Counted from the whole stretch's first letter, positions 3,668-48,377 are shown. The stretch is DNA of 60,382 nt, filler included, from 5 parts of 5 records of this genome joined end to end with filler, not necessarily neighbours in it, one strand, 5' to 3'. Notes: a model not told the origin generated them from the letters alone. Translations and numbers: made by a program.

Positions 3668-4486
3668 ATGCAAAAAGAGATAAAGTTTTTTCATTCACAA
3701 AAGCTTCCATATTTGGAAAGTCGCTATTCAAAGTATAGCAGTGATTGTTATAAAGAACATACTCATGATACTCTATCAATTGGTGCAGTTGAAAATGGGG
3801 TTACAAGGTTTTCAGTGCAAACACGTGAATATGAACTCAAACCAAATGAACTAGCGGTTCTAAATCCACACACTATTCATGCTTGTAACCCTTATGAAAA
3901 AGATACAAGAGATTATCATATGATCTATTTAGATACCTCTTGGTGCAAGGAGCTTCAAAATACTCTTTTTCAAACAAATACAGAGTTTATTCCAATCAAA
4001 GATGAACTTATTCAAAATACTAGTTTATTTCAAGAGTTTTGCAGTATCAATCACTCTTTATTTGAAACCACTTATCTTCTTGAGATAGAATCGCAGCTAA
4101 TAGAATGGATTAGTAGTATCTTTATTCAATACTGTGGAGTTGAACACTATACAGAGAATTTCAGACTCACTTCTACTTTAAGTGATATTGCAAACTATTT
4201 AGAAACAAACTATGAAGAGAATATCTCTTTAGATGAACTTGCAACACAATTTGAGATGAACCCATATACTCTTCTTCGAAACTTTAAAAAACACTATGAC
4301 TTAGCTCCCCATACTTTTCAGATAAATAAAAGAGTACAAAAAGCAAAAGAGCTTTTAAAAGAGAATATACCATTAAGTGAAGTGGCACTTCTATGTGGCT
4401 TTTTTGATCAAAGTCATTTTCAAAGACACTTTAAACAACTAGTGGCCATCACACCAAAAGAGTATAGAGTCAATTTTATACAATAA
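3668..4486 (+). CDS. AraC-family transcriptional regulator (cupin + HTH)
   Basis: HTH cupin motif (EHTHD), HACNP, C-terminal GFFDQSHFQRHFK. Confidence 0.92.
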   Translation: MQKEIKFFHSQKLPYLESRYSKYSSDCYKEHTHDTLSIGAVENGVTRFSVQTREYELKPNELAVLNPHTIHACNPYEKDTRDYHMIYLDTSWCKELQNTLFQTNTEFIPIKDELIQNTSLFQEFCSINHSLFETTYLLEIESQLIEWISSIFIQYCGVEHYTENFRLTSTLSDIANYLETNYEENISLDELATQFEMNPYTLLRNFKKHYDLAPHTFQINKRVQKAKELLKENIPLSEVALLCGFFDQSHFQRHFKQLVAITPKEYRVNFIQ

Positions 4487-4531: not shown

Positions 4532-5485
4532 ATGGGATCTTGGCAATCATGGATGATATCATTAGCAAGAAATAAATCTATAAAAAACTTTATGCAAAAC
4601 TGGGCACCAAGCTCAAAACTTTCACAACAATTTGTAGGTGGATCCACTCTAGAAAACACCATACAAAGGATACAACTTTTAGATGCTGACTCAATATATG
4701 CTTCACTTTTTTATCTTGGTGAGTATGTAGAAGATGAAAAGCTTATCAAGAAGACAATAGATGCTTTAGAAGATGGAATTGGAAAACTTAGTCAAAACAA
4801 TCTTGATCTACATATCTCGATAGACCCTACACAAATAGGACTTTTACAAAGTAAAGAACTGTGTAAACAAAACCTTTTAAAACTAGCAAATACTATACAA
4901 CTCCATCAAAAGAAAGATGGGATCAAAAAAGATTTTTTAATGATAGATATGGAAGACAGCTCAGTAACAGAGCAAACCATAGATTTTTATAAACTCTTAA
5001 AAAAGCATCATCTCCCCGTTGCTCTTACTCTACAAACCTATCTATATAGAACCAAACAAGATATAGAAATAATCATAAAAAATGGTGACCCAGTACGTTT
5101 AGTAAAAGGTGCTTTTGCAGAAGATCACACTATAGCATATACAAATCAAATAGAGAAAGATCATGCATATTTAGAGTGTGCTAAGCAAATACTTTCTTTA
5201 AAAGCAAAACAAAATGGAGTCTACCCTATTTTTGGTACCCACGATGATAAAATAATCGACAAGATCAATAAAGTCGCATCACAAAATGGCTGGGAAAAAG
5301 ATCAATATGAGTTTGAGATGCTTTTAGGAGTAAGAGAAAAGTATCAAAAAAAGTTAGTGGCACAAGGATATAAGCTTCGACTCTATACCCCTTTTGGAAA
5401 AGATTGGTGGGCATATGCTATAAGACGTATAGGGGAAAATCCAAAGAATTTTAAAATGCTCTTACTGTCACTTTTGAAGTTCTAA
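4532..5485 (+). CDS. Monofunctional proline dehydrogenase-family flavoprotein
   Basis: YLGE, IDMEDS, LQTYLYRT, RLVKGAF, GTHD, EFEMLLG, YAIRRIGENP motifs. Confidence 0.88.
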   Translation: MGSWQSWMISLARNKSIKNFMQNWAPSSKLSQQFVGGSTLENTIQRIQLLDADSIYASLFYLGEYVEDEKLIKKTIDALEDGIGKLSQNNLDLHISIDPTQIGLLQSKELCKQNLLKLANTIQLHQKKDGIKKDFLMIDMEDSSVTEQTIDFYKLLKKHHLPVALTLQTYLYRTKQDIEIIIKNGDPVRLVKGAFAEDHTIAYTNQIEKDHAYLECAKQILSLKAKQNGVYPIFGTHDDKIIDKINKVASQNGWEKDQYEFEMLLGVREKYQKKLVAQGYKLRLYTPFGKDWWAYAIRRIGENPKNFKMLLLSLLKF

Positions 5486-6238
5486 AAATCTATTAGGAGT
5501 CATTGCATAGATACTTTTAAAGGATTTACAAAAGTGGCTTTGATCATAAAAGCCACACTCCTGCGAGACTTGAGAGATATTTTGAAACTCGTGTGAGCTT
5601 AGAAGTTTTTTACTACGGTTAAGTTTTTGATTGATAATATATGCATAAGGTGTAAGTCCGAACTCTTTTTTAAAAAGACGGATAATATGCTCTTTACTAT
5701 AGGAAAACTCTTTGACAATATCTTCTAAAGAGAGATCAAGGTCAATATTTTTATCTATAAAATTTTGAATAGTGTTTATAAGTGTATTCTCTTTTAATTC
5801 TATTGTATCATTAGCCCATAGAGAAAGGTTTTGAAAAAATTTATAAAGCTTTTGCTCCATACCATTTTTCTTCTCTAAAAAACTTTGGCATAGCTCTATA
5901 AAACTATTATAGAGTTCTTGATCTTGTAATATATTTTCAAACAATCCGTCATTTATCAAACTATTTTCAAAATAAAATACATAATACCCTTTGGTATCAC
6001 CTCTTAGATCTGAAGACTTATGTACCTCATCTTTATGAAGTATCAAAAGCTGATTTGGCTGTAAGGTCTCTTTTTTATCACTAAACTCAATCTCTATCAT
6101 CCCAGAAGCTATAGCACAGATACTAAACTGATCATGGGAGTGTTTTTTATAGTTTGAATAAAACTCATTGGAGTATTTTAATTGTCCTATTTTGGAATCT
6201 TGAAAGATTTTATTTTTAATCTTATACCCTTTTATCAA
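5468..6238 (-). CDS. AraC-family transcriptional regulator
   Basis: KHSHD cupin motif, GFYDQSHFCKSFK HTH; TTG start. Confidence 0.9.
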   Translation of the reverse strand: MIKGYKIKNKIFQDSKIGQLKYSNEFYSNYKKHSHDQFSICAIASGMIEIEFSDKKETLQPNQLLILHKDEVHKSSDLRGDTKGYYVFYFENSLINDGLFENILQDQELYNSFIELCQSFLEKKNGMEQKLYKFFQNLSLWANDTIELKENTLINTIQNFIDKNIDLDLSLEDIVKEFSYSKEHIIRLFKKEFGLTPYAYIINQKLNRSKKLLSSHEFQNISQVSQECGFYDQSHFCKSFKSIYAMTPNRFLELQK

Positions 6239-6275
6239 TTTTTTACAAGATATATTTTTTCTATTGTGTTATTAT
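6236..6275 (+). promoter_or_regulatory. Putative AraC box CAATTTTTTACAAGA and extended -10 (TGnTATTAT) for the TSUP gene
   Basis: Repeat of the 4471 motif; overlaps the start of the divergent AraC gene. Confidence 0.55.
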
Positions 6276-6300
6276 ACAGAAATTTTTTAATGGAATTATT

Positions 6301-7050
6301 ATGGAAATATCACTTGAAATACTTATTGCTCTTTTTTTAGTTGCTTTTACAGCAGGGACTATTGATACCATCGCTGGAGGTGGTGGACTTCTTACTATCC
6401 CAGCATTACTTTGGGCAGGACTCCCTCCAGCAGCTGCCCTTGCTACTAATAAACTCCAATCAGTTTTTGGAACCTTTACCGCATCATACTATTTTGTAAA
6501 AAAAGGGATGGTTGATCTAAAGCAAATGAAACTGATGATCTTTTTTGCTTTTTTTGGCTCAATTCTTGGAAGTTTTAGTGTGGTTCAGATCAACCCTGCA
6601 CTTTTAGAAAATATTATCCCTATACTCCTGATGATCATTGGTATCTATTTTTTATTTTCAAAAAATGCTGGAGCGGTAGAGAAACACAAACTTATCTCTT
6701 CAACCGCTTTTGCTTTTAGTTTTGTTCTCGTTATTGGATTTTATGATGGTTTTTTTGGACCTGGAACTGGATCCTTTTTCACTATTGCCTTTATCTATTT
6801 CTTAGGATATACCATCTCCCATGCCACAGCACAAACCAAAATATTAAACTTTATGACCAATTTTGGCTCACTCATCTTTTTTACTTTTTATGGAGAGCTT
6901 TTTATTATAATAGGTTTAGTTATGGGAGCTGGTCAAATACTAGGAGCTCTCCTTGGAGCAAAACTTGTAATGATACAAGGGCAAAAGATCATCCGACCAC
7001 TAATTGTGATCATTAGTTTTGGGATGTCTATAAAACTACTTTTAAGCTAA
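6301..7050 (+). CDS. TSUP (TauE/SafE, YfcA-like) transporter
   Basis: DTIAGGGGLLTIP, ALATNKLQ, GFYDGFFGPGTGSF. Confidence 0.92.
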   Translation: MEISLEILIALFLVAFTAGTIDTIAGGGGLLTIPALLWAGLPPAAALATNKLQSVFGTFTASYYFVKKGMVDLKQMKLMIFFAFFGSILGSFSVVQINPALLENIIPILLMIIGIYFLFSKNAGAVEKHKLISSTAFAFSFVLVIGFYDGFFGPGTGSFFTIAFIYFLGYTISHATAQTKILNFMTNFGSLIFFTFYGELFIIIGLVMGAGQILGALLGAKLVMIQGQKIIRPLIVIISFGMSIKLLLS

Positions 7051-7081
7051 TTTCATACTATTTATATGATACTATCACCTC

Positions 7082-7966
7082 ATGAGATTTGAGCAGCATC
7101 TACAAAAATATATCTACTTTTATTTGATCCTCTCCATGATCTTTTGGGGAGCATCATGGCCAACTTCTAAAATACTCACTACTTACACAGATATCTATAC
7201 TATTAGCTTTTTAAAATTCTTTTTAAGTGGACTTACTCTTATCCCTTTACTTTTTTATATATTTAAACCAAAAATAATGTGGGTATATAGTATGACAAAA
7301 CTGATATTTGGAGCTATAGTATTTAATATTCTTTATAATTTTTTGATGTTTTATGGACTTCAAATAGGATATGCTGGATTAGGAGGTGTGATCGTCACTA
7401 GTTCAAACCCAATCTTTACCTTTATTATAATTGCATTTTTAGAAAAAGTTTCTATCCCAATGAAACAAAAGCTTGCCTTACTTTTAGGACTACTTGGAAC
7501 AATTATCACCGTTAAACTTTTCTCCATTGATTTTATCAATATCTTCAATGGTGGAAATCTTTTATTTTTATTAGCATCCCTTTGCTGGTCAATTGTAACA
7601 ATATTTAGTACAAAAGCAAAACAACTGATCCATCCTATTTTATTTACCTGTTATTTGTATCTCAGCTCTTCACTGTTTAGCTTATCATTCACATCATTTG
7701 ATTCTATTTTAATGATCTTTCACTATGATCTATTCTTTTGGATCAACCTTATTTTTACTACAGTTATGACTACTGGATTAGCTACAACCTTTTATTTCTA
7801 TGCCTCCTCAATTCTAGGAGCACACTATACTGCTTCTTTTATCTTTATCACTCCACTTTTTGCTGTACTCACTTCATCTATTTTTTTAGATGAAATCCCT
7901 AGTTTCTCAACACTATTTGGTGGAATTCTTCTTATAACAGCTATCTATCTTTTGAATAAAAAATGA
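7082..7966 (+). CDS. DMT/EamA-family transporter
   Basis: About 10 TM segments, IFWGASW, duplicated EamA architecture. Confidence 0.88.
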   Translation: MRFEQHLQKYIYFYLILSMIFWGASWPTSKILTTYTDIYTISFLKFFLSGLTLIPLLFYIFKPKIMWVYSMTKLIFGAIVFNILYNFLMFYGLQIGYAGLGGVIVTSSNPIFTFIIIAFLEKVSIPMKQKLALLLGLLGTIITVKLFSIDFINIFNGGNLLFLLASLCWSIVTIFSTKAKQLIHPILFTCYLYLSSSLFSLSFTSFDSILMIFHYDLFFWINLIFTTVMTTGLATTFYFYASSILGAHYTASFIFITPLFAVLTSSIFLDEIPSFSTLFGGILLITAIYLLNKK

Positions 7967-9117: not shown

Positions 9118-9217
9118 NNNNNNNNNNNNNNNNNNNNNNNNNNNNNNNNNNNNNNNNNNNNTTAATTAATTAANNNNNNNNNNNNNNNNNNNNNNNNNNN
9201 NNNNNNNNNNNNNNNNN
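9118..9217. other. Artificial contig spacer
   Basis: 44 N + TTAATTAATTAA (stops in all frames) + 44 N. Confidence 0.98.
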
Positions 9218-9355
9218 TTCCAAACTTCTTTTAAATGTTTGTTGAAAAAGTGAATCCTCAAAACCTCTTAATTTTAAAAATTGTTTTGGATATCTTCCTC
9301 TACTTAGTGGCCAAAGTCTTGTTCCTGAGCCACCTGCTAATATAAGTACTTTCAC
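9218..9355 (-). CDS. manC: Mannose-1-phosphate guanylyltransferase, N-terminal fragment (cut by contig end)
   Basis: [19 protein letters not shown]; likely GTG start at 9355 behind GGAG. Confidence 0.85.
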
Positions 9356-9473
9356 TCTTCTCACTCCCTTCATAAATAAAGATCTTTTTCATACTATATT
9401 CTATCAAATTTCTTTGACTTATTCCACAAAATAAGAAACAGTCATTATTTAGACTGCTTCTTTATAGTTTTAA

Positions 9474-10484
9474 CTATTTACTTTTATACCATTCTACAAA
9501 TTTTCTAACTCCATCTTCAAAAGATAAACTCGGGTTATAACCCGTTTTCTCTTTTAATTTAGAAATATCAGCATAGGTTCTATCAACATCTCCAGCTTGC
9601 ATCGGTAGTCTGTTTATCTTCGCTTTTTTCCCCAGTACTTTTTCTATAGTTTCTATCATCTCTTTTAACGAAACCGGATTATTGCTCCCTATATTAAATA
9701 TATCGTATATTTTTTCATCTTTTTCAACTAAATCAACTGACTTAATTATTCCGTCCACTATATCAGCAACGTATGTATAATCTCTGGATGTACTTCCGTC
9801 CCCGTATACCGGAATTTCTTCATTATTTAAAATCAATCTTGTAAATTTATTTATTGCTAAATCAGGTCTTTGTCTAGGCCCGTAAACAGTAAAAAATCTC
9901 AAAAAAACAATATTAATATCATAAATAGAGTGATAAACATGTCCCATTACTTCATTAGCTTTTTTCGTAGCTGCATATGGACTAATTGCAAAATCCACAA
10001 TATCTGTTTCTTTAAAGGGAACTTCTTTATTATTTCCATATACTGACGAACTAGATGCAGAAATAACTTTTTTAACTCCATATTTTCTACAACACTCATA
10101 TATATTATGTGTTCCTCTAGCATTTACTTCCTGATATAACAAAGGATTTTCAAGTGATGGTCTAACTCCTGCTCTGGCGGCAAGGTGAATTACTATATCA
10201 ATTTCATTTTCACTAAATATTCTCTCTAACTCGTTCAAGTCTCTAATATCTACAATTTCCAGTAGATAATTTTTTGAATCAATTTTTTCTTTTAAGTCTG
10301 ACAATTTATTTATATTGATATTTTTATTTCCTGTTGAAACTTTTACATTTTCTATTTTTAATTCTTCTGCATAATAGTCATTAAAATTATCAACATTAAC
10401 TACTCTATTCCCTTGTTTTAGTAACTCTTCAACTAAATGTGAGCCGATAAAACCTGCTCCACCTGTTACTAAATATGTTTTCAT
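9474..10484 (-). CDS. NAD-dependent nucleotide-sugar epimerase (UDP-glucuronate 4-epimerase-like)
   Basis: TGGAGFIG, HLAARAGVRPS, SSSSVYG, YAATK, RFFTVYGP.QRPD. Confidence 0.92.
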   Translation of the reverse strand: MKTYLVTGGAGFIGSHLVEELLKQGNRVVNVDNFNDYYAEELKIENVKVSTGNKNININKLSDLKEKIDSKNYLLEIVDIRDLNELERIFSENEIDIVIHLAARAGVRPSLENPLLYQEVNARGTHNIYECCRKYGVKKVISASSSSVYGNNKEVPFKETDIVDFAISPYAATKKANEVMGHVYHSIYDINIVFLRFFTVYGPRQRPDLAINKFTRLILNNEEIPVYGDGSTSRDYTYVADIVDGIIKSVDLVEKDEKIYDIFNIGSNNPVSLKEMIETIEKVLGKKAKINRLPMQAGDVDRTYADISKLKEKTGYNPSLSFEDGVRKFVEWYKSK

Positions 10485-10588
10485 ATTATTTACCTCTTTT
10501 CAGAATAATATATATCTATTTCAAAATTTGAATTCTAAGATATTTTAACATTTATACAATGATTAATCAATAAGTTCAATATAAATTA

Positions 10589-10616
10589 AGAAGCAGTTAA
10601 GTTACTAACTGCTTCT
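10589..10616. terminator. Hairpin at the end of the pilin-like operon
   Basis: AGAAGCAGTTA-agttac-TAACTGCTTCT inverted repeat overlapping the stop codon. Confidence 0.55.
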
Positions 10617-11189
10617 TCTCCTACTATATGAATCATTTTTTTTATTCTTTTTTTTCTCTTCTATAAAAAAACTTATTTTATTATTATAAGCACCACTTTT
10701 TACATTATACCATTTACCGTTAATTAGTCCGGTATCATATACAATTTTTAAGGCAAGTTTATCTTTATTAACTAGTTTTTTTATATATTTGAATTTTCCA
10801 CTATTCATATCAAGTTCTGCAATATTTTTGTCTATATTATTTGATTTTACAAGGTAAAATTTTGTTGCATTAGTTAATATTTCTGAATACTCGTTATTAG
10901 AATCATAAAAACCTGCTGCTTCAATATTAAGAATATATTCATTCCATTTTATTTTATTTAAATCCAAGAAAAAAACTTCTTCGCTATTTTGATTTGGGTT
11001 TAAATTCATTGCTATTGATTCAGTTACGTATCTGTCTTTTCTTTTTTTTCTAAAAAATTTAATTGGTTTTTCCCTATAAACTCTTCTATGCCACTTCTTT
11101 CCACTTTTACTATATGTAGAATATTGACAGGTCAAAGTAACTTGTCCAGTTATAATTAATAAAATTATTAAATTAAATATTTTTTTCAT
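10605..11189 (-). CDS. Exported hypothetical protein, possible minor pilin-like subunit
   Basis: Signal-like N-terminus; late motif WYNVKSGAYNNKISFFI parallels the other two subunits; basic N- and C-terminal stretches. Confidence 0.6.
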   Translation of the reverse strand: MKKIFNLIILLIITGQVTLTCQYSTYSKSGKKWHRRVYREKPIKFFRKKRKDRYVTESIAMNLNPNQNSEEVFFLDLNKIKWNEYILNIEAAGFYDSNNEYSEILTNATKFYLVKSNNIDKNIAELDMNSGKFKYIKKLVNKDKLALKIVYDTGLINGKWYNVKSGAYNNKISFFIEEKKKNKKNDSYSRRRSS

Positions 11190-11198
11190 TTTTACACC

Positions 11199-12704
11199 TT
11201 AACCTTCAACAATCAACTCTTTCTTAAACTCTGATAATTCCTGACTACCATTAAATAATTTTATTTCAGCTAAATATTTACCTGCTTCTAATTTCTTTGC
11301 ACTTCCTGTAAGTAATCCATCTTTAAGAGGTAGTGTATTTTCTACACCTTCGGGTAAATTCAAATTCATTCTTTCAATAAATTTTCCGTTTAAATCAGTA
11401 ATTACAAGTTCTGCTGATGGTGATATAAATATGTTGCCAGAGTTTTTATAATTCATTGAAATAATTTGCTCTTTATCTTGTACCTGTCCGTATAAACTTT
11501 TAGTTTCCACTTCATATACAAAATCATTTCCGGCAATTAAAGTAACAGGAATTTCTCTTTGATAAATTGGCTTTTTCTTCTCTTCATCAAGTGCTGCTAA
11601 AACTAAAGTTCCATGATAACTTCCTGATTTTGTATCTTTCGGTACTTCCATTGTAAAGAGATAAGTTTGTTTACCTCTTTTCCTCATCGTTAGACCATTT
11701 CTACTTCTTAATTTAATCATCTGCCCTACTGAATACTCATATTTATTCTCCGTATCTTTGTACATAACTGCTGTAGGGTACTCTTTATCAAGCTCATTTT
11801 GAATCATTATCTTTTGAGTTTTTCTTAGGCCTTGATTTAGCTCTAAACTTACATTTTCTTCTGAAGGAGTGAAATATCCCATCTCTTCAAGTGAAGGAAA
11901 ATCATACTCTCCTTCTTTAATTTCTATTTTTTGAGTTATTATCTTTTGCTTATCACCATACTTTATAAAACCTCTTAAGGTATATTCACCCGGAAGTAAT
12001 CTTTTGCTTATTTGAGAAGTAAATTTCAACTTACTTTTAGGATAAATCCTTGTTGATTCTATATTGTTTCTTTTTTGATAATCTGTTTTAAGTTCTAACC
12101 TTTCAACTAATCGTCTATTTGAATCTCTTAAAGTTGCTTCAATATTCATCAAATAATCCCAGCCTGATATATTATTAATTAATATTTCTGCTCTAGGTTT
12201 TCGATCTAAATCTGGTTTAATAGTTAACTCTTCAGCAGCTATTATTTTAGCTAATCCAGGCTTATTTATTCTTAAATCTACTCTAACTGCATATCTGACT
12301 ACTATTTGCATACCACTTTTTTCTTCTTTGTTATCCTTTACCTGTTCTACCATTATTATTACCTGCTTAGAACCACCTTCATCATTAGGAATTTTCACCC
12401 TACACTTCATGTCTGTTTCTATTCCAGCTGGAACAAGCAATGTTGATTTTTCTGGTTGAATCCAATTGGCTGCTGATGATTTATTTTCTAATGTTGGAGT
12501 ATACTCCATCTCTCCAGACTCCAACTGTTTTTGTTCATAAAATGAAAACTTTACTCTTTCATCTTTTACACCAGGTATAATTGCTAAGGTAAACTCTTTA
12601 ATGTCTCCTGGTTGACCTTCAACATCTACAACCAATGGTTTAACTCCAATAGAATAAACTACTACTTGAAATAATAAAAAAATAATTCCTAATAATCTCT
12701 TCAC
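11199..12704 (-). CDS. Exported multi-Ig-domain protein, fimbrial chaperone (PapD/DUF916)-like
   Basis: Signal peptide then IGVKPLVVDVEGQPG, NWI, IVVRYAVRVDL, repeated N.SG/N and G.Y beta-sandwich motifs; GTG at 12704 has GGAGG (ORF track uses 12731). Confidence 0.6.
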   Translation of the reverse strand: MKRLLGIIFLLFQVVVYSIGVKPLVVDVEGQPGDIKEFTLAIIPGVKDERVKFSFYEQKQLESGEMEYTPTLENKSSAANWIQPEKSTLLVPAGIETDMKCRVKIPNDEGGSKQVIIMVEQVKDNKEEKSGMQIVVRYAVRVDLRINKPGLAKIIAAEELTIKPDLDRKPRAEILINNISGWDYLMNIEATLRDSNRRLVERLELKTDYQKRNNIESTRIYPKSKLKFTSQISKRLLPGEYTLRGFIKYGDKQKIITQKIEIKEGEYDFPSLEEMGYFTPSEENVSLELNQGLRKTQKIMIQNELDKEYPTAVMYKDTENKYEYSVGQMIKLRSRNGLTMRKRGKQTYLFTMEVPKDTKSGSYHGTLVLAALDEEKKKPIYQREIPVTLIAGNDFVYEVETKSLYGQVQDKEQIISMNYKNSGNIFISPSAELVITDLNGKFIERMNLNLPEGVENTLPLKDGLLTGSAKKLEAGKYLAEIKLFNGSQELSEFKKELIVEG

Positions 12705-12784
12705 TTTAATTCCTCCTAATAATCTCTTCACTACAATTTTTACAATAATAATACCTTCCTAATTTTTATTATAAAAATTATAGA

Positions 12785-12816
12785 AAAGACAGAATAACAT
12801 CTACTATTCTGTCTTT
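12785..12816 (-). terminator. Intergenic hairpin/terminator after the 202-aa subunit
   Basis: AAAGACAGAATA...TATTCTGTCTTT inverted repeat followed by T-run on minus strand. Confidence 0.6.
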
Positions 12817-12843
12817 AATTATATCCTACTATTTAATTTCCGA

Positions 12844-13452
12844 CTATTGCGCTACTACAGTGAAAACTATTGTACTTGAATAAGTTCCTGCAGAGACATT
12901 ATAAAATTCTTCTGGAATTTTTACCCCTGTAATAATATCATATGTTACAGAGCTATTTTTATGAATTGATACAGGTGTTAAACCTAAACCTACATCCTGT
13001 CTAACATCACCTGGATAAAATATAACATTATTTGTGCTATTATCAGTCAGTGCTACAAAACTTGCTAACCCATTAAAAGGATTTCCTTCACCATCTTTAA
13101 AAGCCTCAACTTTAGCATATACATCACAAGGTGTATTTGTGTCAACAGTCATACTTCTTTTTGTGAACTTAACTTCATTTCCTTTACCTACAAAGTTAGG
13201 AGTTCCTATACCTGTTTCAATATCAGAATTAACTATGTCCATCAAAGGTTTATTAACCCCTGAATAGTTCTCTAATGAATAAAATACGTCAGATCCTACT
13301 GAAGAAGAATACCATAAAGTATCTGAATTCCCCGTTTCAATCTCAGCATGTTTTTCATTTTTTACAGTTATTTCAAAATCAAGAGCATTAGCAACACTAG
13401 AAATCATTAGTGCAAGTAGTAGCAAAGTAATTTTTTTCTTAATTATTTGCAT
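12844..13452 (-). CDS. Exported pilin/fimbrial-subunit-like protein
   Basis: Sec signal (ANA/L), beta-rich, C-terminal FYNVSAGTYSSTIVFTVVAQ. Confidence 0.6.
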   Translation of the reverse strand: MQIIKKKITLLLLALMISSVANALDFEITVKNEKHAEIETGNSDTLWYSSSVGSDVFYSLENYSGVNKPLMDIVNSDIETGIGTPNFVGKGNEVKFTKRSMTVDTNTPCDVYAKVEAFKDGEGNPFNGLASFVALTDNSTNNVIFYPGDVRQDVGLGLTPVSIHKNSSVTYDIITGVKIPEEFYNVSAGTYSSTIVFTVVAQ

Positions 13453-13481
13453 TATAATTTCCTCTCATTCATTGAAATTTT

Positions 13482-13505
13482 ACCCCGCTTATATTAAGCG
13501 GGGAT
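13482..13505 (-). terminator. GC-rich hairpin after the first (major) subunit
   Basis: CCCCGCTTA-tat-TAAGCGGGG; no strong U-tail, so may be a leaky terminator or mRNA stabiliser. Confidence 0.55.
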
Positions 13506-13514
13506 TTGTATTTT

Positions 13515-13964
13515 CTAGTTTGCTGACGCTACAGTTAATGTAATATCTCCATCATAACCATTTGCTGTATCTGCTGCTACATTATACCAATTATATGTAG
13601 TTTCATCTACAGTTGCTGATTCTGCCATAGTTGCTGTGAAAGTTACATTTTTTGTTTCTTTAGTTTGCCCGTAAGCTACTGCAGTACTAGTTACAGTCAT
13701 TAAAGCGTCTAATGCTTCATCATCAAATTTTGTTTCAGATGTTAAAGAAACTGCTACATTTGACGCAACCTCAACCGGTACAACAGTTGTTACAGCTACA
13801 CCTGGCGTTACAATTGGATTTAATGCTGTATTAGCTACTGGAGTAATTTCTGAATATTCAGAAACCTTCATTGTTATTTCTACATTTGCTGTATCTAAAT
13901 CCGCTGCCATTGCTGTACCACCAATTAATAAAACACCTGCCACTAATAATAAAACTTTTTTCAT
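13515..13964 (-). CDS. Putative major pilin/fimbrial subunit (Sec-exported)
   Basis: Signal peptide ending AMA/A, Thr/Val/Ala-rich, C-terminal WYNVAADTANGYDGDITLTVASAN; strong AGGAGG RBS; first gene behind the riboswitch. Confidence 0.65.
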   Translation of the reverse strand: MKKVLLLVAGVLLIGGTAMAADLDTANVEITMKVSEYSEITPVANTALNPIVTPGVAVTTVVPVEVASNVAVSLTSETKFDDEALDALMTVTSTAVAYGQTKETKNVTFTATMAESATVDETTYNWYNVAADTANGYDGDITLTVASAN

Positions 13965-14012
13965 TTCCTCTTCCTCCTACTAGATTATTTTTTTAATTAA
14001 CATTAAGTAATC

Positions 14013-14107
14013 TAGTCGTCGGTCGGTTTCGCCACTGACTACTCGTTCTTTCTATAATTACTAGGCGACCAAATTCAGAAAGAACGAATCTCTGTCTCCG
14101 AGGACTA
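14013..14107 (-). ncRNA. c-di-GMP-II-like riboswitch aptamer
   Basis: Minus strand: P1 UAGUCCUCGG/CCGACGACUA, GGAGAC-AGAGA, long stem UUCGUUCUUUCU/AGAAAGAACGAG, pseudoknot UCGCC/GGCGA, 3' AACCGACC as in class II aptamers. Confidence 0.8.
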
Positions 14108-14202
14108 TATCCTAAATATATGTTATTTTTTTATTTTAGTGATAATGGATAATTATTTTTGCTGGCCAGCTAAATTATTTCCTTCATCCCTTTTACACGA
14201 CC

Positions 14203-14231
14203 ATTCTATCGTCTCGTTGTCGTTTTGTCAA
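14203..14231 (-). promoter_or_regulatory. Sigma70 promoter of the pilin-like operon
   Basis: TTGACA-17 nt-TAGAAT on minus strand (14231-14226 and 14208-14203), upstream of the riboswitch. Confidence 0.8.
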
Positions 14232-14764
14232 CGTTTTTACACATCAACATCTCAAAATATGTATGTTTTATCACATAATAATCCCACGATTCAAATTGTT
14301 CTTTTTTTAGGTTATCTTCTGTATACCAGAACACTTTTTCACATTATATTAGTTTTATTTAATCTGTTTTTTGGACTTTTTCTCTGTTTATTGTAATGTT
14401 TTTTCACTTTTTATATTAAAATTCATAATTTTAACACTAATTTTTTTTGAAATTTTCTATATTTTTTTGTGATAAATTTGTGTTTTTTTCATTTTTTGTC
14501 ATCATATTGGACTTCATTTCCAAGAATATACTCAATTTCAATATATATACATTCGTAATATCAAATTACTTTTCCACTTAATATCTTTTGTAAACTTAGT
14601 TTTATAGTATTCTATTTCAGTTACTTATTAGTAATATTTTGGTAGATTTGATATAATTTATCAAAGTACTAATTAATTTAAAACTCTTTTTTTATCATGG
14701 CTTTGAAATCTAATATACGACAAAAATATAAAAAACTAGCTATCATTTTAACAATAGCTAGTTT

Positions 14765-15898
14765 CTATATTTTTATTTTAATTCCTATGCTAATTTCATC
14801 AATATCAGAATATTTCACATACTTCATATTTATACTCAGGTTGTTTTTAGGAAAAAATTCCAAAATAACTCTGTCTCTATCATCTTTTAAAAATAGTCTA
14901 TCATATGAGAAATCTAAATACTTTAATCTATACCCTAACTTAAAAAGTATATCTGATTCAAACTCATTATTATCGAGCCATATAAATAGCTCTGTACCCA
15001 AGCTTAATTTGCTATACTGCAGTTCATCTACCAAACCAATTGCTAATATATCATCTTCAACTTGATATCTTGCTGCTAAATTAAAGTATCCTTCTCTATT
15101 TCCAGTTAATTTTAGCTGATCTCGAAAAGACTTCAAACTTATATCCTCAAATTCTCCTTTAAAGTTAAATTTAGCAAAAGTATATTGAAAATTTAAATCA
15201 TAACTTTCTTTTTCACTATAATAAAGAGTTATATAATTATCTTTTTTCGGTTTAATATCTTGGGTTAGAAAATCAAACTCATCAAATTTATTTTCATAAA
15301 TAAAACTTTCCTTTGAGAAATCAATATTCTTTTTTACCTGCTTAGCCAAAAGTAAATAATAGCTTTCATTATCTATACCTGCATCAAAATCTGCCTTCAA
15401 TGTAGCAACAGGTCGATACTCTTCACTAAGAAGTATGGTTTGTGATGCTAAAAACTCACTTTGACTATCTTTGATATGTAAAGACAGCTCTGTTAAGATT
15501 TCCTTATGACTGTTTATTTGTGTTCCTTTTAAATTAACTTTTATAAAGCGTTCCGTATCTAAGCTTCTATTCTCAATAATCTCCTTATATTCAAGTTCTT
15601 CTCCCATTTTACCAGTAAAAATAAAGGGATAAACTAATTTATCCCTTTTATCTGTCTTTTCCAGATCAACATAAAAATCAATATTTTGATATATAAGATT
15701 TAATAGTGAACTATTATAAAATATTTCCGATTCTTTTTCACTTTCACTAAATTCTATCCGTGCAGATATATTTTGATATCTTTTTTTACTCAATTTGATA
15801 AAAGTTAGTTTGTATGATATTGACTCAGAACTATTTTCTGCAGAAAATAAACAGAGTTTGATTATAAGAAAAATCAGAGTAAATACTCTTACCTTCAT
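14765..15898 (-). CDS. Exported protein, degenerate secretin-like N-half plus probable beta-barrel C-half
   Basis: Signal peptide; strand pattern colinear with the neighbouring secretin domain; amphipathic strands ending EISIGIKIKI; starts 2 nt after the secretin stop. Confidence 0.55.
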   Translation of the reverse strand: MKVRVFTLIFLIIKLCLFSAENSSESISYKLTFIKLSKKRYQNISARIEFSESEKESEIFYNSSLLNLIYQNIDFYVDLEKTDKRDKLVYPFIFTGKMGEELEYKEIIENRSLDTERFIKVNLKGTQINSHKEILTELSLHIKDSQSEFLASQTILLSEEYRPVATLKADFDAGIDNESYYLLLAKQVKKNIDFSKESFIYENKFDEFDFLTQDIKPKKDNYITLYYSEKESYDLNFQYTFAKFNFKGEFEDISLKSFRDQLKLTGNREGYFNLAARYQVEDDILAIGLVDELQYSKLSLGTELFIWLDNNEFESDILFKLGYRLKYLDFSYDRLFLKDDRDRVILEFFPKNNLSINMKYVKYSDIDEISIGIKIKI

Positions 15899-15900
15899 CT

Positions 15901-17088
15901 TTATTCCTCCGAATTAAGAATAACCGGAGTTACAAACATAAGAAGCTCCTTTGAACTTTTTGATGTTTTTCTATTTTTGAATAACCATCTGATAAGGGGG
16001 ATTTTGCTTAAAATAGGAATTCCGCTATCTATTTTACTCTCATCTTCCAGAGTCATTCCTGCTATTACCGCAGTTCCACCATCTTCTATTTCAACAGTAG
16101 TTTTTACACTATTCTCTTTAACAGTTAAATTTGATGTATCAACATCTACAAAGTAACTTACTTTGGGATTAATTATTAACTCTATCTTACCATCTCTAAT
16201 ATAAGCCGTTACATTTACATTGACTCCACTTGTAATTTCCTCTACACTGGAGTCATTATCATCGCTGTCTTGCAGTATAATAGTCTCTGTTTCACCTACA
16301 AAAAGAGTTGCCTCTTCTCCTTCTGTTACTAGTAATTTCGGATTAGCTTTTATACTTGCATCTTTTTCCTGCTCAAGTAAAGTTAATTTAGCTAATAGAT
16401 CCCCATGTAAGTCAGTATTAATAACTAAAAGACCGCTATCAAAATCATAACTTCCTGATTTTTGCTCACTCCCAGTTAAATCTGAAGTATTTGATTCAAG
16501 AAATTTGTTTCCAAACTCCTTAATTTTATCTTTATTTATTTCCGTTACTAACACTTTTATCTCTATCATCTTTTTGGGAATATCAAGTTCATCTACTATC
16601 TCTCTAATATCATCAATTATTGAAACAGGCCCGAAAATTGACAAATATTTTGGATTTTTCGAATTAATTTTTACATATTGTTTGTAATAATCAGGCAATA
16701 AAGAATATACATCTTCTGCATAAATATTTTTTAAGCTGATGATTTTAACTGTTGATAACTCGTTAAAAGTACTACTTTTGGGATTTGGTAATCCTACAAA
16801 ATAGAAATCTTCTATTTTTTTAAAAGTATAACCGCCACTTACCAATATTTTCTTCAAAGCTTTCTCAAGTGGCTCATCAATCAAATCAACTGTTGTAACT
16901 CCTCCTACAGTTTGGTCCGGTATAATAGTTATTCCCGTTTGTAATGAAATCTCTGTAAGTGCTTCCCTAATATCACTTTCAAACAGAGTTATTGTTACCA
17001 ATTGTTCCTCATCAGCAAATGACATAACAGTAAATAATGACAATAAAAATCCAACAAATAGTTTTTTTAACCTAAATTTTTGAATCAT
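15901..17088 (-). CDS. Secretin (GspD/PilQ family), compact form
   Basis: N0-like DIREALTEISLQTGITII, ANPKLLVTEGEEA, GIPILSKIPLIRWLFK, ELLMFVTPVIL. Confidence 0.92.
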   Translation of the reverse strand: MIQKFRLKKLFVGFLLSLFTVMSFADEEQLVTITLFESDIREALTEISLQTGITIIPDQTVGGVTTVDLIDEPLEKALKKILVSGGYTFKKIEDFYFVGLPNPKSSTFNELSTVKIISLKNIYAEDVYSLLPDYYKQYVKINSKNPKYLSIFGPVSIIDDIREIVDELDIPKKMIEIKVLVTEINKDKIKEFGNKFLESNTSDLTGSEQKSGSYDFDSGLLVINTDLHGDLLAKLTLLEQEKDASIKANPKLLVTEGEEATLFVGETETIILQDSDDNDSSVEEITSGVNVNVTAYIRDGKIELIINPKVSYFVDVDTSNLTVKENSVKTTVEIEDGGTAVIAGMTLEDESKIDSGIPILSKIPLIRWLFKNRKTSKSSKELLMFVTPVILNSEE

Positions 17089-17133
17089 TTCGCTAAATCT
17101 CCCTTTTAGTTATATTTTCCCTATATTATTCCC

Positions 17134-17142
17134 ATTATAGCA
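17134..17142 (-). promoter_or_regulatory. Extended -10 promoter (TGCTATAAT) for the secretin operon
   Basis: Consensus TGnTATAAT about 45 nt upstream of the secretin ATG. Confidence 0.6.
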
Positions 17143-17241
17143 GATTTTTTTATTTTCTTAAATCATTTTGCAAATAAAAAACGAAACAATTAATAAATTG
17201 TTCCGTTTCTATTATCTAATTTCATTTTTTAAATTCTTGTT

Positions 17242-17919
17242 CTATTTTCCTAATTCTTCTTTTAATTTAGCTAATTCATCATCTACTCCGCTATCAGCAG
17301 AAAGTTTTGCAAACTCACTATCAAGGTCTTCTCCGGCTAGCTCATTATTGATATCTTCCATTGCTTCAGCTTCATTAATCATTCTATTAGCTTTTTCTTC
17401 CATTTTAGCAAAACTAGAGAAAGCACCTTCTCCTACTTTTCCAACTTTAGCTTTTGTTTCTACTATTTTCTTTTTTGCTTTAGCTGTTTCAAGTCTGCTT
17501 TTAAGAATGTTTTTCTTTCTTTTAGCTTCAGCTATTTTATTTTCCATCATTTTAAGATCTGCAACTAATTTATCAACACTTGCTGATATTTGATCTTTAT
17601 CTGTGGAAATTGATGTTAACTCCTCTTCGAACTCTTTTTTCTTAGCTAATGCTTTTCTGGCAAGCTCTTCATTTCCTTTTGTTAGAGCTAATTTAGCATT
17701 CTCCTGCCATTTTTTTACTTCTTTTTCTAATTCTCTTACTCTTTTATTAAGCCTCATCTCTTCAGCTTTTGACTTAGAAACACTCTCTTTTGCTTTAATA
17801 TACTCTTTTTCCATATCTAGAATATTTTGCTCTAATAGTTTTTCCGGATCTTCCATCTTGTCCAGAGCTGCATTAACATTCGACTTAAATACATTTGATA
17901 TTCTATCAAAAAATCCCAT
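17242..17919 (-). CDS. pspA: PspA/IM30 family protein (YjfJ-like)
   Basis: MGFFDRISNVFKSNVNAALDKMEDPEKLLEQ, A..AL..G.EELAR.AL, VDDELAKLK. Confidence 0.93.
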   Translation of the reverse strand: MGFFDRISNVFKSNVNAALDKMEDPEKLLEQNILDMEKEYIKAKESVSKSKAEEMRLNKRVRELEKEVKKWQENAKLALTKGNEELARKALAKKKEFEEELTSISTDKDQISASVDKLVADLKMMENKIAEAKRKKNILKSRLETAKAKKKIVETKAKVGKVGEGAFSSFAKMEEKANRMINEAEAMEDINNELAGEDLDSEFAKLSADSGVDDELAKLKEELGK

Positions 17920-17976
17920 AATCTATTTCTCCTTTATTTATTAATATATAATTAATATTATATTTAGTTTTAAATT

Positions 17977-18390
17977 TTATTTTAGATTCTCTTTTATTAC
18001 TTTAAACACAGCAGGTAAACTAAGTTCAAAAGTTTCAACTATTTTTAAAAGTTCGTTTTCATCTAAATTTTCAGTCTCTAATGACTCAGTTAATATTAAT
18101 CTTTTATTCTCTTCATTTGTTGAATCAATTGCCAATGAAATCGGTAAAATTTCAGTGTTTAAATCAAGAAGTGTTCTATATAACTCGACCTCTTCTTTTA
18201 ATTCATTAATTCCAATTATATCCATTTGGAAAAATATACTTTGCTCCTGCTCAACAACAGCTATTTGTGCATCATAATCTGAAAGTGTTATCCATAAGAA
18301 TCCCTCTTCTTGCTCCTCAACTAAATAACTATTTTCAATTAATAAATCTTTTATGTTCTTCGCGTTATGCTGTCTAACTAATGTTTTCAT
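17977..18390 (-). CDS. YjfI/DUF2170 family (CesT/Tir-chaperone-like) protein
   Basis: LLDLNTEILPISLAI motif; position between yjfK-like gene and pspA. Confidence 0.7.
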   Translation of the reverse strand: MKTLVRQHNAKNIKDLLIENSYLVEEQEEGFLWITLSDYDAQIAVVEQEQSIFFQMDIIGINELKEEVELYRTLLDLNTEILPISLAIDSTNEENKRLILTESLETENLDENELLKIVETFELSLPAVFKVIKENLK

Positions 18391-18403
18391 CTCTTCCTCC
18401 CAT

Positions 18404-18451
18404 TTTGTTTTTCTAAGTCAAAATGCTTTAATTTGACTTTGTTTAGAAAAA
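18404..18451 (-). promoter_or_regulatory. Repeated RBS-adjacent hairpin motif, copy A
   Basis: UUUUUCU-AAACA-AAGUCAAA-UUAAAGCAU-UUUGACUU-AGAAAAA-CAAAAUG-GGAGG. Confidence 0.6.
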
Positions 18452-18538
18452 TAAATACCGATTAATTTTGTTTTTCTGAGAATTATATACCTAATTTAAG
18501 TTTAATATACAAATTTATAAAAGTATACTTTTTAATTC

Positions 18539-19477
18539 TTAAAATTTCCCTAAATTATCTAAAGATATCGGAATACCTATATCTAAAGCAATATGAGTCC
18601 CCTGTCCATCTTCTATTACATTAATACCTATATACTCCTCTTTAAAGAATTCATCACTAATAGCTCTATGAAAAATCATACTTTTTTTACTTACTACTTT
18701 TGGATTTTCAGCATTTTTTTCAGTATAGATTGTTTCATCAAAATCATTTGCATCACCGATTTCGTAATAATTACTATATTCAATATCAAGGTCACTTTCT
18801 GTTAATATAAAATATATCTCAACTATTTTTTCATTTTCATCATTTTTTATCACTTCTACTATCCAGTCGCATTGTGCCAGCTCTTTATCAAATTTAGATA
18901 TCACTTCATCGTAATCTGAATTAAGCTCTTCTGATATTTGGCTAAACAGATTAGTAGCTATACATGAATCAAAATCATCAAATTCACAGTTCATAAAACC
19001 TTCAAATTTTGGATAAAGTTTTTTGGTTAGTTTAAACAACAACTCTCCTATTTTTTCAATAGGTTCATCCTCAATAATAAAAGTTTCATCATTCATTATT
19101 CCCTGTACATTATCATTCCCTATCCAATATAGCCATTCCTCATCACTTTGAGGGAAAACTTCATCATAAAGTTTGAATAATCTACACGATTCTATCTCTT
19201 TATTATTTTTATCATAAACTATAGTTAAATAACTTTCTACCTCATTTTGTGATTCTAAATATATATTTGCATGCTTAATTCCCGCCACTTCATAAACTCC
19301 TACAGCTTGCACAATATTATCAAAACCTTCGAATATAAATTTACTCTCCAATCCAATATTAGAGAATTCAAGTTCATCAAATTTTATAAATGAATCTATT
19401 TTTAAATTTTGAGGCAGAAAATCATCAATTCCTTCTTGAATCTTTGCTTTCTTTTTAAAAACATTAAATATCTTCAT
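18539..19477 (-). CDS. YjfK/DUF2491 family protein with internal acidic insertion
   Basis: VQAVG..., YDEVFPQSDEEWLYW, SMIFHR, IDIGI-like C-terminus; yjfI-pspA context. Confidence 0.7.
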   Translation of the reverse strand: MKIFNVFKKKAKIQEGIDDFLPQNLKIDSFIKFDELEFSNIGLESKFIFEGFDNIVQAVGVYEVAGIKHANIYLESQNEVESYLTIVYDKNNKEIESCRLFKLYDEVFPQSDEEWLYWIGNDNVQGIMNDETFIIEDEPIEKIGELLFKLTKKLYPKFEGFMNCEFDDFDSCIATNLFSQISEELNSDYDEVISKFDKELAQCDWIVEVIKNDENEKIVEIYFILTESDLDIEYSNYYEIGDANDFDETIYTEKNAENPKVVSKKSMIFHRAISDEFFKEEYIGINVIEDGQGTHIALDIGIPISLDNLGKF

Positions 19478-19487
19478 AACCCCTCCT

Positions 19488-19580
19488 AAATTGTTTTCAA
19501 TTTTAATTATGTTTTAAAATTAAAATGCTTTGAAAATAATGAAAGTAATCCTAAATTGTTTTTCTAAGTTGGAATGCTTT
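19488..19580 (-). promoter_or_regulatory. Repeated hairpin motif, copy B (19494-19536) and truncated copy C (19551-19580)
   Basis: UUUUCAA-AGCA-UUUUAAUU-UUAAAACAU-AAUUAAAA-UUGAAAA-CAAUUUA-GGAGG; copy C is AAAGCAU-UCCAACUU-AGAAAAA-CAAUUUA-GG. Confidence 0.6.
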
Positions 19581-19680
19581 NNNNNNNNNNNNNNNNNNNN
19601 NNNNNNNNNNNNNNNNNNNNNNNNTTAATTAATTAANNNNNNNNNNNNNNNNNNNNNNNNNNNNNNNNNNNNNNNNNNNN
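19581..19680. other. Artificial contig spacer
   Basis: N-TTAATTAATTAA-N. Confidence 0.98.
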
Positions 19681-40990: not shown

Positions 40991-41090
40991 NNNNNNNNNN
41001 NNNNNNNNNNNNNNNNNNNNNNNNNNNNNNNNNNTTAATTAATTAANNNNNNNNNNNNNNNNNNNNNNNNNNNNNNNNNNNNNNNNNNNN
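40991..41090. other. Artificial contig spacer
   Basis: N-TTAATTAATTAA-N. Confidence 0.98.
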
Positions 41091-48277: not shown

Positions 48278-48377
48278 NNNNNNNNNNNNNNNNNNNNNNN
48301 NNNNNNNNNNNNNNNNNNNNNTTAATTAATTAANNNNNNNNNNNNNNNNNNNNNNNNNNNNNNNNNNNNNNNNNNNN
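48278..48377. other. Artificial contig spacer
   Basis: N-TTAATTAATTAA-N. Confidence 0.98.

Follow-up and report, generated by a model that had tools for sequence, protein, structure and literature searches.

A leader on the minus strand of a 60,382-nucleotide stretch of DNA (the whole stretch analyzed, hereafter the window) precedes an operon whose first gene encodes a putative filament subunit, and it raises the question of which signal controls this operon and at which step of expression. In an earlier note, the region immediately upstream of the start codon (13965..14231) was described as a variant class II cyclic di-GMP (c-di-GMP) riboswitch that gates the major subunit, probably as a translational ON switch. 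In this work, covariance models, folding and comparison with related loci were used to analyze the region. We propose, with a probability of roughly 0.6, that in a secretin-associated filament operon the leader of the first subunit gene carries a c-di-GMP-II riboswitch that serves as a translational ON switch.

The aptamer in the operon leader

The Rfam family RF01786 (c-di-GMP-II) matches positions 14108..14012 of the minus strand with 56.8 bits, at a gathering threshold of 53.5 and an E-value of 5.8e-10 for the whole window, over the full length of the model (positions 1-84 of 84). On this aptamer RF01786 outscored the two variant families of clan CL00127, and lower-scoring matches of the clan were set aside by cmscan in competition. 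The same 97 nucleotides were found, with 59.6 bits and an E-value of about 1e-11, by a lineage model, R1, which is a covariance model built from four related aptamers with the window left out. The aptamer (14012..14108) ends 47 nucleotides before the ATG at 13964 and lies on the same strand as the downstream gene; no second or tandem aptamer was detected in 13800..14400 with Rfam at E-values up to 10. The class II aptamer that the earlier note had placed in this 5' leader is thus significant by covariance-model search and, judged by its sequence, is a genuine c-di-GMP riboswitch aptamer and an ordinary member of its family.

The helices follow the order P1, P2, P3 of the c-di-GMP-II family, and ACCGACC leads into P1; all coordinates of helices and leader elements refer to the minus strand. 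P1 is formed by AUAGUCCUCGG (14098..14108) and CCGACGACUAG (14012..14022) with 9 of 11 standard pairs. Its 5' strand contains UCCUC (14104..14100), which is complementary to a GAGGA near the start codon, and the last five nucleotides of its 3' strand are common to a competing hairpin described below. In the cmscan alignment, P2 comprises GAC (14096..14094) and GUC (14039..14037), all three pairs being formed, and is followed by a putative kink-turn with the bulge AGA (14093..14091) and GA (14090..14089), opposite which stands UA (14041..14040). The P3 stem-loop (14043..14087) pairs 14087..14077 with 14053..14043, which we read as a predicted stem of 11-12 base pairs with a loop of about 23 nucleotides. 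This loop was already noticed to be enlarged, and it holds 10+2+2 (14) inserted bases relative to RF01786. The pseudoknot joins GGUCGCC in the P3 loop (14064..14070) to the segment 14025..14033, which consists of GGCGA (14033..14029), a bulged AA (14028..14027) and CC (14026..14025).

These helices were compared in a model-based alignment of five aptamers (the window and four relatives) with the pseudoknot written in, chosen because MAFFT misaligned the enlarged loop of the window. In this alignment, which is fitted to the nested helices and not to the pseudoknot, standard pairs occupy 90% of 150 cells, a level reached by none of 500 shuffles, and 14 of the 30 pairs change on both sides; shifting the 3' partners by 1-3 columns cuts pairing to 28-50%. 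P3 is 97.8% paired across the five aptamers, and 8 of its 9 pairs have changes on both sides. In the pseudoknot (GGUCGCC with GGCGA-AA-CC), all seven pairs are standard in all five sequences, including one compensatory change from A-U in the four relatives to G-C in the window.

The ribosome-binding site as predicted target

Between the aptamer and the ATG (13964..13962) no terminator-like site was found on the minus strand. The ribosome-binding region (13962..13978) includes the Shine-Dalgarno (SD) sequence AGGAGG (13978..13973), 8 nucleotides before the ATG and with an anti-SD duplex of -10.2 kcal/mol, and a second purine-rich stretch, GAGGA (13970..13966). Immediately upstream lies the competing, anti-P1 hairpin (13979..14016), in which ACUAGAUUA (14016..14008) and UAAUCUAGU (13987..13979) form 9 base pairs around a 20-nucleotide loop, and which runs into AGGAGG rather than into a U-run. 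Folded without constraints, the leader retains P2 and P3 and opens P1, and the 3' strand of P1 then forms the 9-base-pair hairpin, extended by C/CC:G/GG pairs into AGGAGG. In the minimum free energy structure of this free fold, UCCUC of the P1 5' strand is paired with GAGGA beside the AUG. The hairpin abutting AGGAGG, as the earlier note had it, is therefore present, and its SD-directed extension is strong: the last 20 nucleotides of the aptamer together with AUUA pair with the pre-SD/SD segment at -15.1 kcal/mol, a value reached by 0.07% of 3000 shuffles. The pairing of UCCUC to the SD region, claimed in the same note, exists in the free fold as a weak interaction. The main competitor in this leader would thus appear to be the 3' half of the aptamer with the pre-SD/SD segment and not UCCUC of the P1 5' strand. 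In silico, the SD-containing alternative helix and the aptamer are mutually exclusive. When the aptamer helices were enforced, the mean probability that GGAGG is unpaired increased from 0.40 to 0.73, and the minimum free energy structure left the entire 3' tail and the ribosome-binding site unpaired.

The same arrangement was sought in related loci. A scan of genome contigs with an alignment of homologues of the 510-residue protein of the operon yielded 21 loci, which belong to Halobacteroidaceae, Halanaerobiales, Limnochordia, Clostridia and unclassified organisms and are all Bacillota by record title. Five of them carry c-di-GMP aptamers at the Rfam gathering score, and both classes are represented. 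Class II aptamers were found in locus L017 (4774-4860 and, scoring best with the GAG-variant model, 4053-4138, both on the plus strand), in L020 (3933-4021) and in L018 (1149-1236, likewise GAG-scoring). Class I aptamers were found in L017 (2743-2824, minus strand) and L012 (1100-1191, minus strand), and a c-di-GMP-I-GGC aptamer in L004 (7946-8031, plus strand). A search with lineage model R1 over 22 sources (310,806 bases) revealed no further convincing aptamer; the weak extra matches were L020 4572-4648 (18 bits, E 0.23) and L020 8492-8557 (13.8 bits, E 2.5).

The four class II aptamers end 13-28 nucleotides before the predicted ATG of a small secreted protein; for one aptamer of L017 (L017b) and for L020, a second ATG six codons further in was taken as the likelier start for its SD spacing. 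The genes behind these aptamers encode homologues of the 149- and 202-residue proteins of the window. The four relatives all have a conserved CCAAUGRGGAGG that includes the SD and is complementary to the P1 5' strand together with a few bases upstream of it. The energy of this pairing is -14.6 to -18.5 kcal/mol, which no more than 0.6% of 2000 shuffles attain, and the free folds make use of it; enforcing the aptamer raises the probability of unpaired GGAGG from 0.09 to 0.60 in L017a and from 0.07 to 0.66 in L017b. That each of the four relatives has a strong anti-SD within its P1 5' strand supports the logic of a translational ON switch. The recurrence of a class II aptamer with an SD-sequestering platform on one gene family is better functional evidence than the pairings of the window itself.

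The window and its relatives in L017, L020 and L018 have in common the family of the downstream gene, the GAA-type tail, the overall fold and an alternative structure that sequesters the SD. They differ in its design: in the relatives a 12-nucleotide anti-SD lies within and just 5' of the P1 5' strand, whereas the window lacks CCAAUGRGGAGG and uses mainly the 3' strand together with a separate 9-base-pair hairpin. One aptamer fold thus serves two SD-sequestering designs, with the anti-SD provided by the P1 5' strand in the relatives and by the 3' half of the aptamer in the window.

According to the mechanism that we infer from these structures, in the ligand-free RNA the pseudoknot 3' strand, the P1 3' strand and AUUA would pair with the segment upstream of and into the SD, and the freed UCCUC of the P1 5' strand could pair with GAGGA beside the AUG, so that both pairings together would occlude the ribosome-binding site. 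Binding of c-di-GMP, the presumed ligand, would close P1 and the pseudoknot and lock both competitors away, and the site AGGAGG-8 nucleotides-AUG would then be single-stranded. The ON direction proposed in the earlier note is thus the one to which the lack of a terminator, the folding and the four related aptamers point in silico.

Weighing the alternatives

Several observations weigh against this mechanism. The score of the aptamer exceeds the gathering threshold of RF01786 by just 3.3 bits; its kink-turn is non-standard (2n = U), and its P3 loop carries the 14-nucleotide insertion. Enforcing the aptamer costs 7.2 kcal/mol in stability relative to the free fold, with the energies of pseudoknot and ligand excluded, and UCCUC:GAGGA alone, at -8.0 kcal/mol, is not significant, 12.9% of 2000 shuffles doing as well. 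The modelled exposure of GGAGG changes little in two of the four relatives (0.45 to 0.54 in L020, 0.38 to 0.39 in L018). Sixteen of the 21 loci have no c-di-GMP aptamer at the gathering score; in 5 of these 16, the sequence upstream of the match is shorter than 2 kb. In L001, the closest locus by synteny, the leader (5400..7300) gave no match to a cyclic-dinucleotide aptamer with Rfam at E-values up to 10. The promoter does not exceed chance, and the transcription start site is a prediction. Low weight is given to a last point, that on a contig truly of Bacteroidota an SD-based platform would meet SD-blind ribosomes: Flavobacterium johnsoniae ribosomes, taken to represent Bacteroidetes, are reported not to recognize SD sequences (PMC7797042).

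Part of this evidence could also be read as showing that c-di-GMP is bound and control is exerted elsewhere than at translation initiation, or in the opposite direction, by Rho-dependent termination, by mRNA stability or as an OFF switch. Such a scheme is helped by the 88-nucleotide leader upstream of the aptamer, which has no explanation so far, by the near-constant SD exposure in those two relatives, by the neglect of kinetics and of the pseudoknot in thermodynamic models and by the fact that the translational mechanism is predicted from sequence and folding. We nevertheless regard it as improbable: there is no intrinsic terminator from the aptamer to the ATG, the SD takes a direct part in the alternative pairings of all five leaders, no base of the ribosome-binding site is paired in the ligand-bound model, and the class II switches investigated to date are ON switches (PMC6366702).

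The near-consensus promoter announced in the earlier note is present on the minus strand at 14203..14231, with a sigma-70-like -35 box TTGACA (14231..14226), a 17-nucleotide spacer and a -10 box TAGAAT (14208..14203), 11 of 12 positions being matched. Sites with at least 11 of 12 matches are no commoner than expected (the two strands of the window have 5, and 20 shuffles have 5.55 on average), and so only the position upstream of the aptamer lends the promoter weight. Transcription would probably start near 14196, hence the predicted leader of about 88 nucleotides 5' of the aptamer. Upstream of the promoter, 14232-14764 comprises about 530 nucleotides of very AT-rich non-coding DNA, within which nothing was identified and which extends to a terminator-like hairpin behind the preceding transcription unit.

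A second alternative concerns the host. The window consists of five contigs placed end to end and joined by four identical linkers (N44-TTAATTAATTAA-N44, that is, 44 N, TTAATTAATTAA and 44 N) at 9118-9217, 19581-19680, 40991-41090 and 48278-48377, and gene neighbourhood across a linker therefore carries no meaning. Genes are truncated at the joins, as observed for an NTP-transferase fragment (9170..9373), an Fe-hydrogenase (19696..) and a molybdopterin oxidoreductase ending near 48277. The riboswitch stands alone on a 10.4-kb contig, B (9218..19580), bounded by linkers. The next contig, C (19681-40990), encodes a 685-residue ACS-like enzyme 99% identical to a protein of Marinifilum sp. N1E240, together with the Pfam families DUF4270 and DUF4907 and a Reg_prop/Y_Y_Y kinase, which we take to be typical of Bacteroidota; this identity is not transferable across the linker to contig B. 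Strong SDs (anti-SD duplex of -6 kcal/mol or lower) precede 9 of 10 genes on contig B and 6 of 43 elsewhere in the window, including 2 of 16 on contig C. Codon usage of contig B correlates with that of contigs D and E (r 0.93 and 0.95) more closely than with that of the Marinifilum-like contig C (0.83), and tetranucleotide correlations of contig B with A, C, D and E do not discriminate (all 0.91-0.96). Homologues of the epimerase of contig B occur in mixed phyla (Fusobacteriota, Bacteroidota and Bacillota), and those of its PspA in Bacillota (Atlas). PspA, a CesT-like protein, DUF2491 and the epimerase gave no tblastn match in the 21 related loci, and no plasmid matches to the contig were found by DNA or protein. 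Most known class II switches come from Clostridia, and the Halanaerobiales and Halobacteroidaceae, which are represented among the related loci, are lineages near those that already have them. The differences between the contigs suggest a mixed bin or horizontal transfer. If the contig truly came from a Bacteroidota genome, an SD-based switch there would be notable.

It is conceivable that the element is intact and idle, residing on an acquired or mis-binned contig in a cell without matching c-di-GMP signalling or SD initiation. The isolation of the contig by N-linkers, the neighbouring 99% Marinifilum-like contig against 21 of 21 related loci in Bacillota, the uneven distribution of strong SDs and the lack of GGDEF, EAL or PilZ domains among the window open reading frames (ORFs) scanned are all compatible with this. 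However, all helices are intact and include a lineage-specific compensatory change, the operon ORFs are intact, codon usage matches that of contigs D and E, and a stretch of 60 kb says too little about the c-di-GMP genes that a genome may contain; we consider an idle element about as improbable as control at another step.

The remaining question is whether the aptamer is a variant in its ligand. The motifs GGAGAC-AGAGA and GGCGAAACCGACC, pointed out earlier, are present on the minus strand as written, and GUGCAACCGACC had been used for the latter as the canonical counterpart. In the cmscan alignment, the canonical consensus has the tail AGUgGUGCAACCG with the loop UGGGCAC, and the window has the tail AGUGGCGAAACCG with the loop UGGUCGC; both altered tail bases are matched by compensating loop partners, so that GGCGA pairs with loop UCGCC. 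The GAG-variant family RF03169 has the consensus tail UGGCGAGACCG and loop CGGuCGCC; what is said here of the GAG and GCG variants rests on the consensus lines of cmscan. The bulged AA of the window aligns to the canonical AA, giving GAAACC against GAGACC in the RF03169 consensus. In place of the G that is distinctive of the GAG consensus, the window has an A, and so do the four relatives, all of them with GAAACC; this holds also for the two whose best score is with the GAG model. To go by its family name alone, RF03170 (GCG) might share that G.

The other differences, AGAGA for the consensus gaUGA and UAG for GAG, are located where the model shows a bulge of three nucleotides and then GA, with GA on the opposite strand. 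In our reading they correspond to the kink-turn positions L3 and 2n, with a predicted A at L3 and U at 2n in the window; the bulge AGA and the GA are present, and the opposite strand has UA instead of GA. In the L018 aptamer, L3 and 2n would both be A. L3 and 2n are probably architectural positions and not ligand contacts. PMC4316175 counts the class II structure 3Q3Z among the kink-turns of riboswitches, with A.G as the 2b.2n pair, and reports that at the 2n position of Kt-23 the frequencies across species follow U > C > G > A, with the kink-turn still folding; variation to U or A at 2n is known to be tolerated.

A specificity variant with the class II fold that senses another ligand, such as a different cyclic dinucleotide, might be suspected from the pseudoknot helix GGCGA/UCGCC, which is that of the GAG-variant consensus, from the two related aptamers (L017 4053-4138 and L018) that score best with the GAG model, from the A at 3'-tail position 8 in place of the conserved C of the canonical consensus, and from the near-threshold score. 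We hold this to be still less probable than the two preceding alternatives. The canonical model wins the clan competition, the distinguishing G is replaced in the window and its relatives, the C-to-A change in the tail is compensated by a G-to-U change in the loop, the remaining changes fall within the kink-turn, and surface filament genes are typical c-di-GMP targets (PMC6366702). Because the canonical model scores best, the AA bulge is kept, GGCGA is compensated and the rest lies in the kink-turn, the substitutions are not expected to change specificity, and the term variant, as far as it implied altered ligand recognition, had to be dropped. Finally, that the sequence resembles the class II model by chance, for which the margin of 3.3 bits and the AT-rich sequence might speak, is effectively refuted already by the E-values with RF01786 and with the independent lineage model, by the 7/7 complementarity of a pseudoknot that neither model scores and by the recurrence of position and orientation before a homologous gene in three other loci.

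The operon under proposed control

The first regulated gene (13515..13964, minus strand) encodes the putative filament subunit, a secreted protein of 149 residues that begins with a Sec-type signal peptide. The rest of the operon (10605..13452, minus strand) encodes a 202-residue subunit paralogue (13452..12844), a 510-residue COG1470/WxLIP-like protein (12731..11199) and a 194-residue protein (11189..10605). Upstream on the same strand, a secretin gene (17088..15901) and its partner encoding a 377-residue protein (15898..14765) form a unit that is closed by the terminator-like hairpin (14766..14731). Between the 149-residue gene and the next one lies a GC-clamped hairpin, CCCCGCUUA-AUA-UAAGCGGGG (13483..13503, minus strand), with a perfect 9-base-pair stem and a weak U-tract, which is possibly an attenuator that sets the ratio of subunit to accessory proteins. 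The listed start of the 510-residue ORF is a GTG without SD, and its N-terminus repeats KRLLG; translation probably begins a few codons further down.

For the 149-residue protein, a word-based search detected one homologue (76% identity). Its AlphaFold model (AF2, from an 11-sequence alignment) reached a predicted local distance difference test (pLDDT) score of 79.9. The matches of this model in the PDB were all weak (E at least 1.6e-3, template-modelling score 0.3-0.43) and were mostly chaperone-usher pilins (CfaB, the PapG pilin domain, Fim and Csu), with Pyrodictium cannulae at rank 6 and TasA fibres at rank 7. A role of the protein as filament subunit, suggested by this predicted structure, is a reasonable lead and not a demonstration. 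The aptamer does precede the first subunit gene, in line with the earlier note; the designation of this subunit as the major one is likely, on the basis of gene order, of the strongest SD found together with the riboswitch and of the GC-clamped hairpin after the gene.

The 510-residue protein has 13 homologues; among those with a name, a COG1470 family protein of Selenihalanaerobacter shriftii (41%) comes closest. The matches of the 510-residue protein to Pfam WxLIP are weak and below threshold. Secretin homologues stand beside the homologue of this protein in 15 of the 21 related loci. The conserved gene set comprises a secretin, a partner of about 380-420 residues, at least two small secreted beta-sandwich subunits, the protein of about 510 residues and a small basic protein; the subunits end in the motif W..V.A..Y..TIT.TV. 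A limited literature search found no description of a COG1470/secretin operon, which is no proof that it is unpublished.

Among known systems, the type of RF01786 (PDB 3Q3Z, Clostridium acetobutylicum) has the same P1-P2-P3 architecture, the kink-turn between P2 and P3 (putative in the window), the loop-tail pseudoknot with bulged AA and the sequence ACCGACC. The window differs from it in the pseudoknot helix (GGCGA/UCGCC versus GUGC/GCAC), in the kink-turn (2n = U, L3 = A), in the P3 loop, which is 14 nucleotides longer, and in its near-threshold score. With RF03169 it has the pseudoknot helix (CGGuCGCC with UGGCGA) and the A at tail position 8 in common, whereas the defining G of GAGACC is A (GAAACC) and the canonical model scores higher. 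Among the systems studied, the nearest parallel is Cdi-2-4 of Clostridioides difficile, described in PMC6366702 as a class II ON switch that acts by anti-termination before the major type IV pilin gene pilA1; the same paper presents the class II switches of this species as ON switches, and the review PMC7583470 lists ligand-bound class II forms as turning translation ON. Cdi-2-4 and the riboswitch of the window are alike in standing directly before a gene for the first or major subunit of a surface filament and in their ON logic, which is predicted in the case of the window. Cdi-2-4 works by transcription anti-termination, whereas the window has no terminator and the SD as its target. The predicted filament of the window is not a type IV pilus: its subunits have Sec signal peptides and a beta-sandwich fold, and its operon includes a secretin and a COG1470/WxLIP-like protein.

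The riboswitch extends a known family, and the operon under its control is the more interesting part. The aptamers tie an uncharacterized operon to c-di-GMP, a classical signal of adhesion and biofilm formation, and thereby provide it with a functional label; the hypothesis offered is that of a c-di-GMP-induced surface filament of diderm Firmicutes. In a wider and more doubtful form, the riboswitch may mark an undescribed filament system as a c-di-GMP output; this system might combine secretin-dependent export, beta-sandwich (donor-strand-like) subunits and a COG1470/WxLIP-like partner; it might belong to diderm Bacillota and the recipients of their gene transfer; and its subunit paralogues might be wired to different riboswitch classes (I, I-GGC and the GAA type of II), with three in one locus in L017. 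If so, the level of c-di-GMP would set both the production of the filament and its subunit composition. A bolder addition is that GAA-type aptamers with non-standard kink-turns might have shifted affinity or specificity.

Several further observations were made in the related loci. The closest relative is a 17,202-nucleotide contig encoding P0001 and P0002 (76-81% identity). The syntenic locus L001 (2949-9237) encodes a secretin, its partner, two subunits, a 511-residue protein and a 160-residue protein, and its 387-nucleotide leader (5478-5865) has ACAACCAAUAAGGGGG before the start codon, a CCAAU...GGGGG motif that resembles CCAAUGRGGAGG of the class II relatives. In L017 (Halanaerobiales), each of the three aptamers stands directly before a different subunit paralogue. 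The class I-type aptamers (L012, the GGC variant of L004, and L017) each precede one and the same distinct type of paralogue, which has a conserved SNAPWQL / SNADWSM stretch. The weak match at L020 4572-4648 lies between the first and second subunit genes and may be a decayed second aptamer or a product of chance. Matches to a group II intron domain (RF02001) adjoin the homologue of the 510-residue protein in L011 (9670-9842) and L015 (7293-7463).

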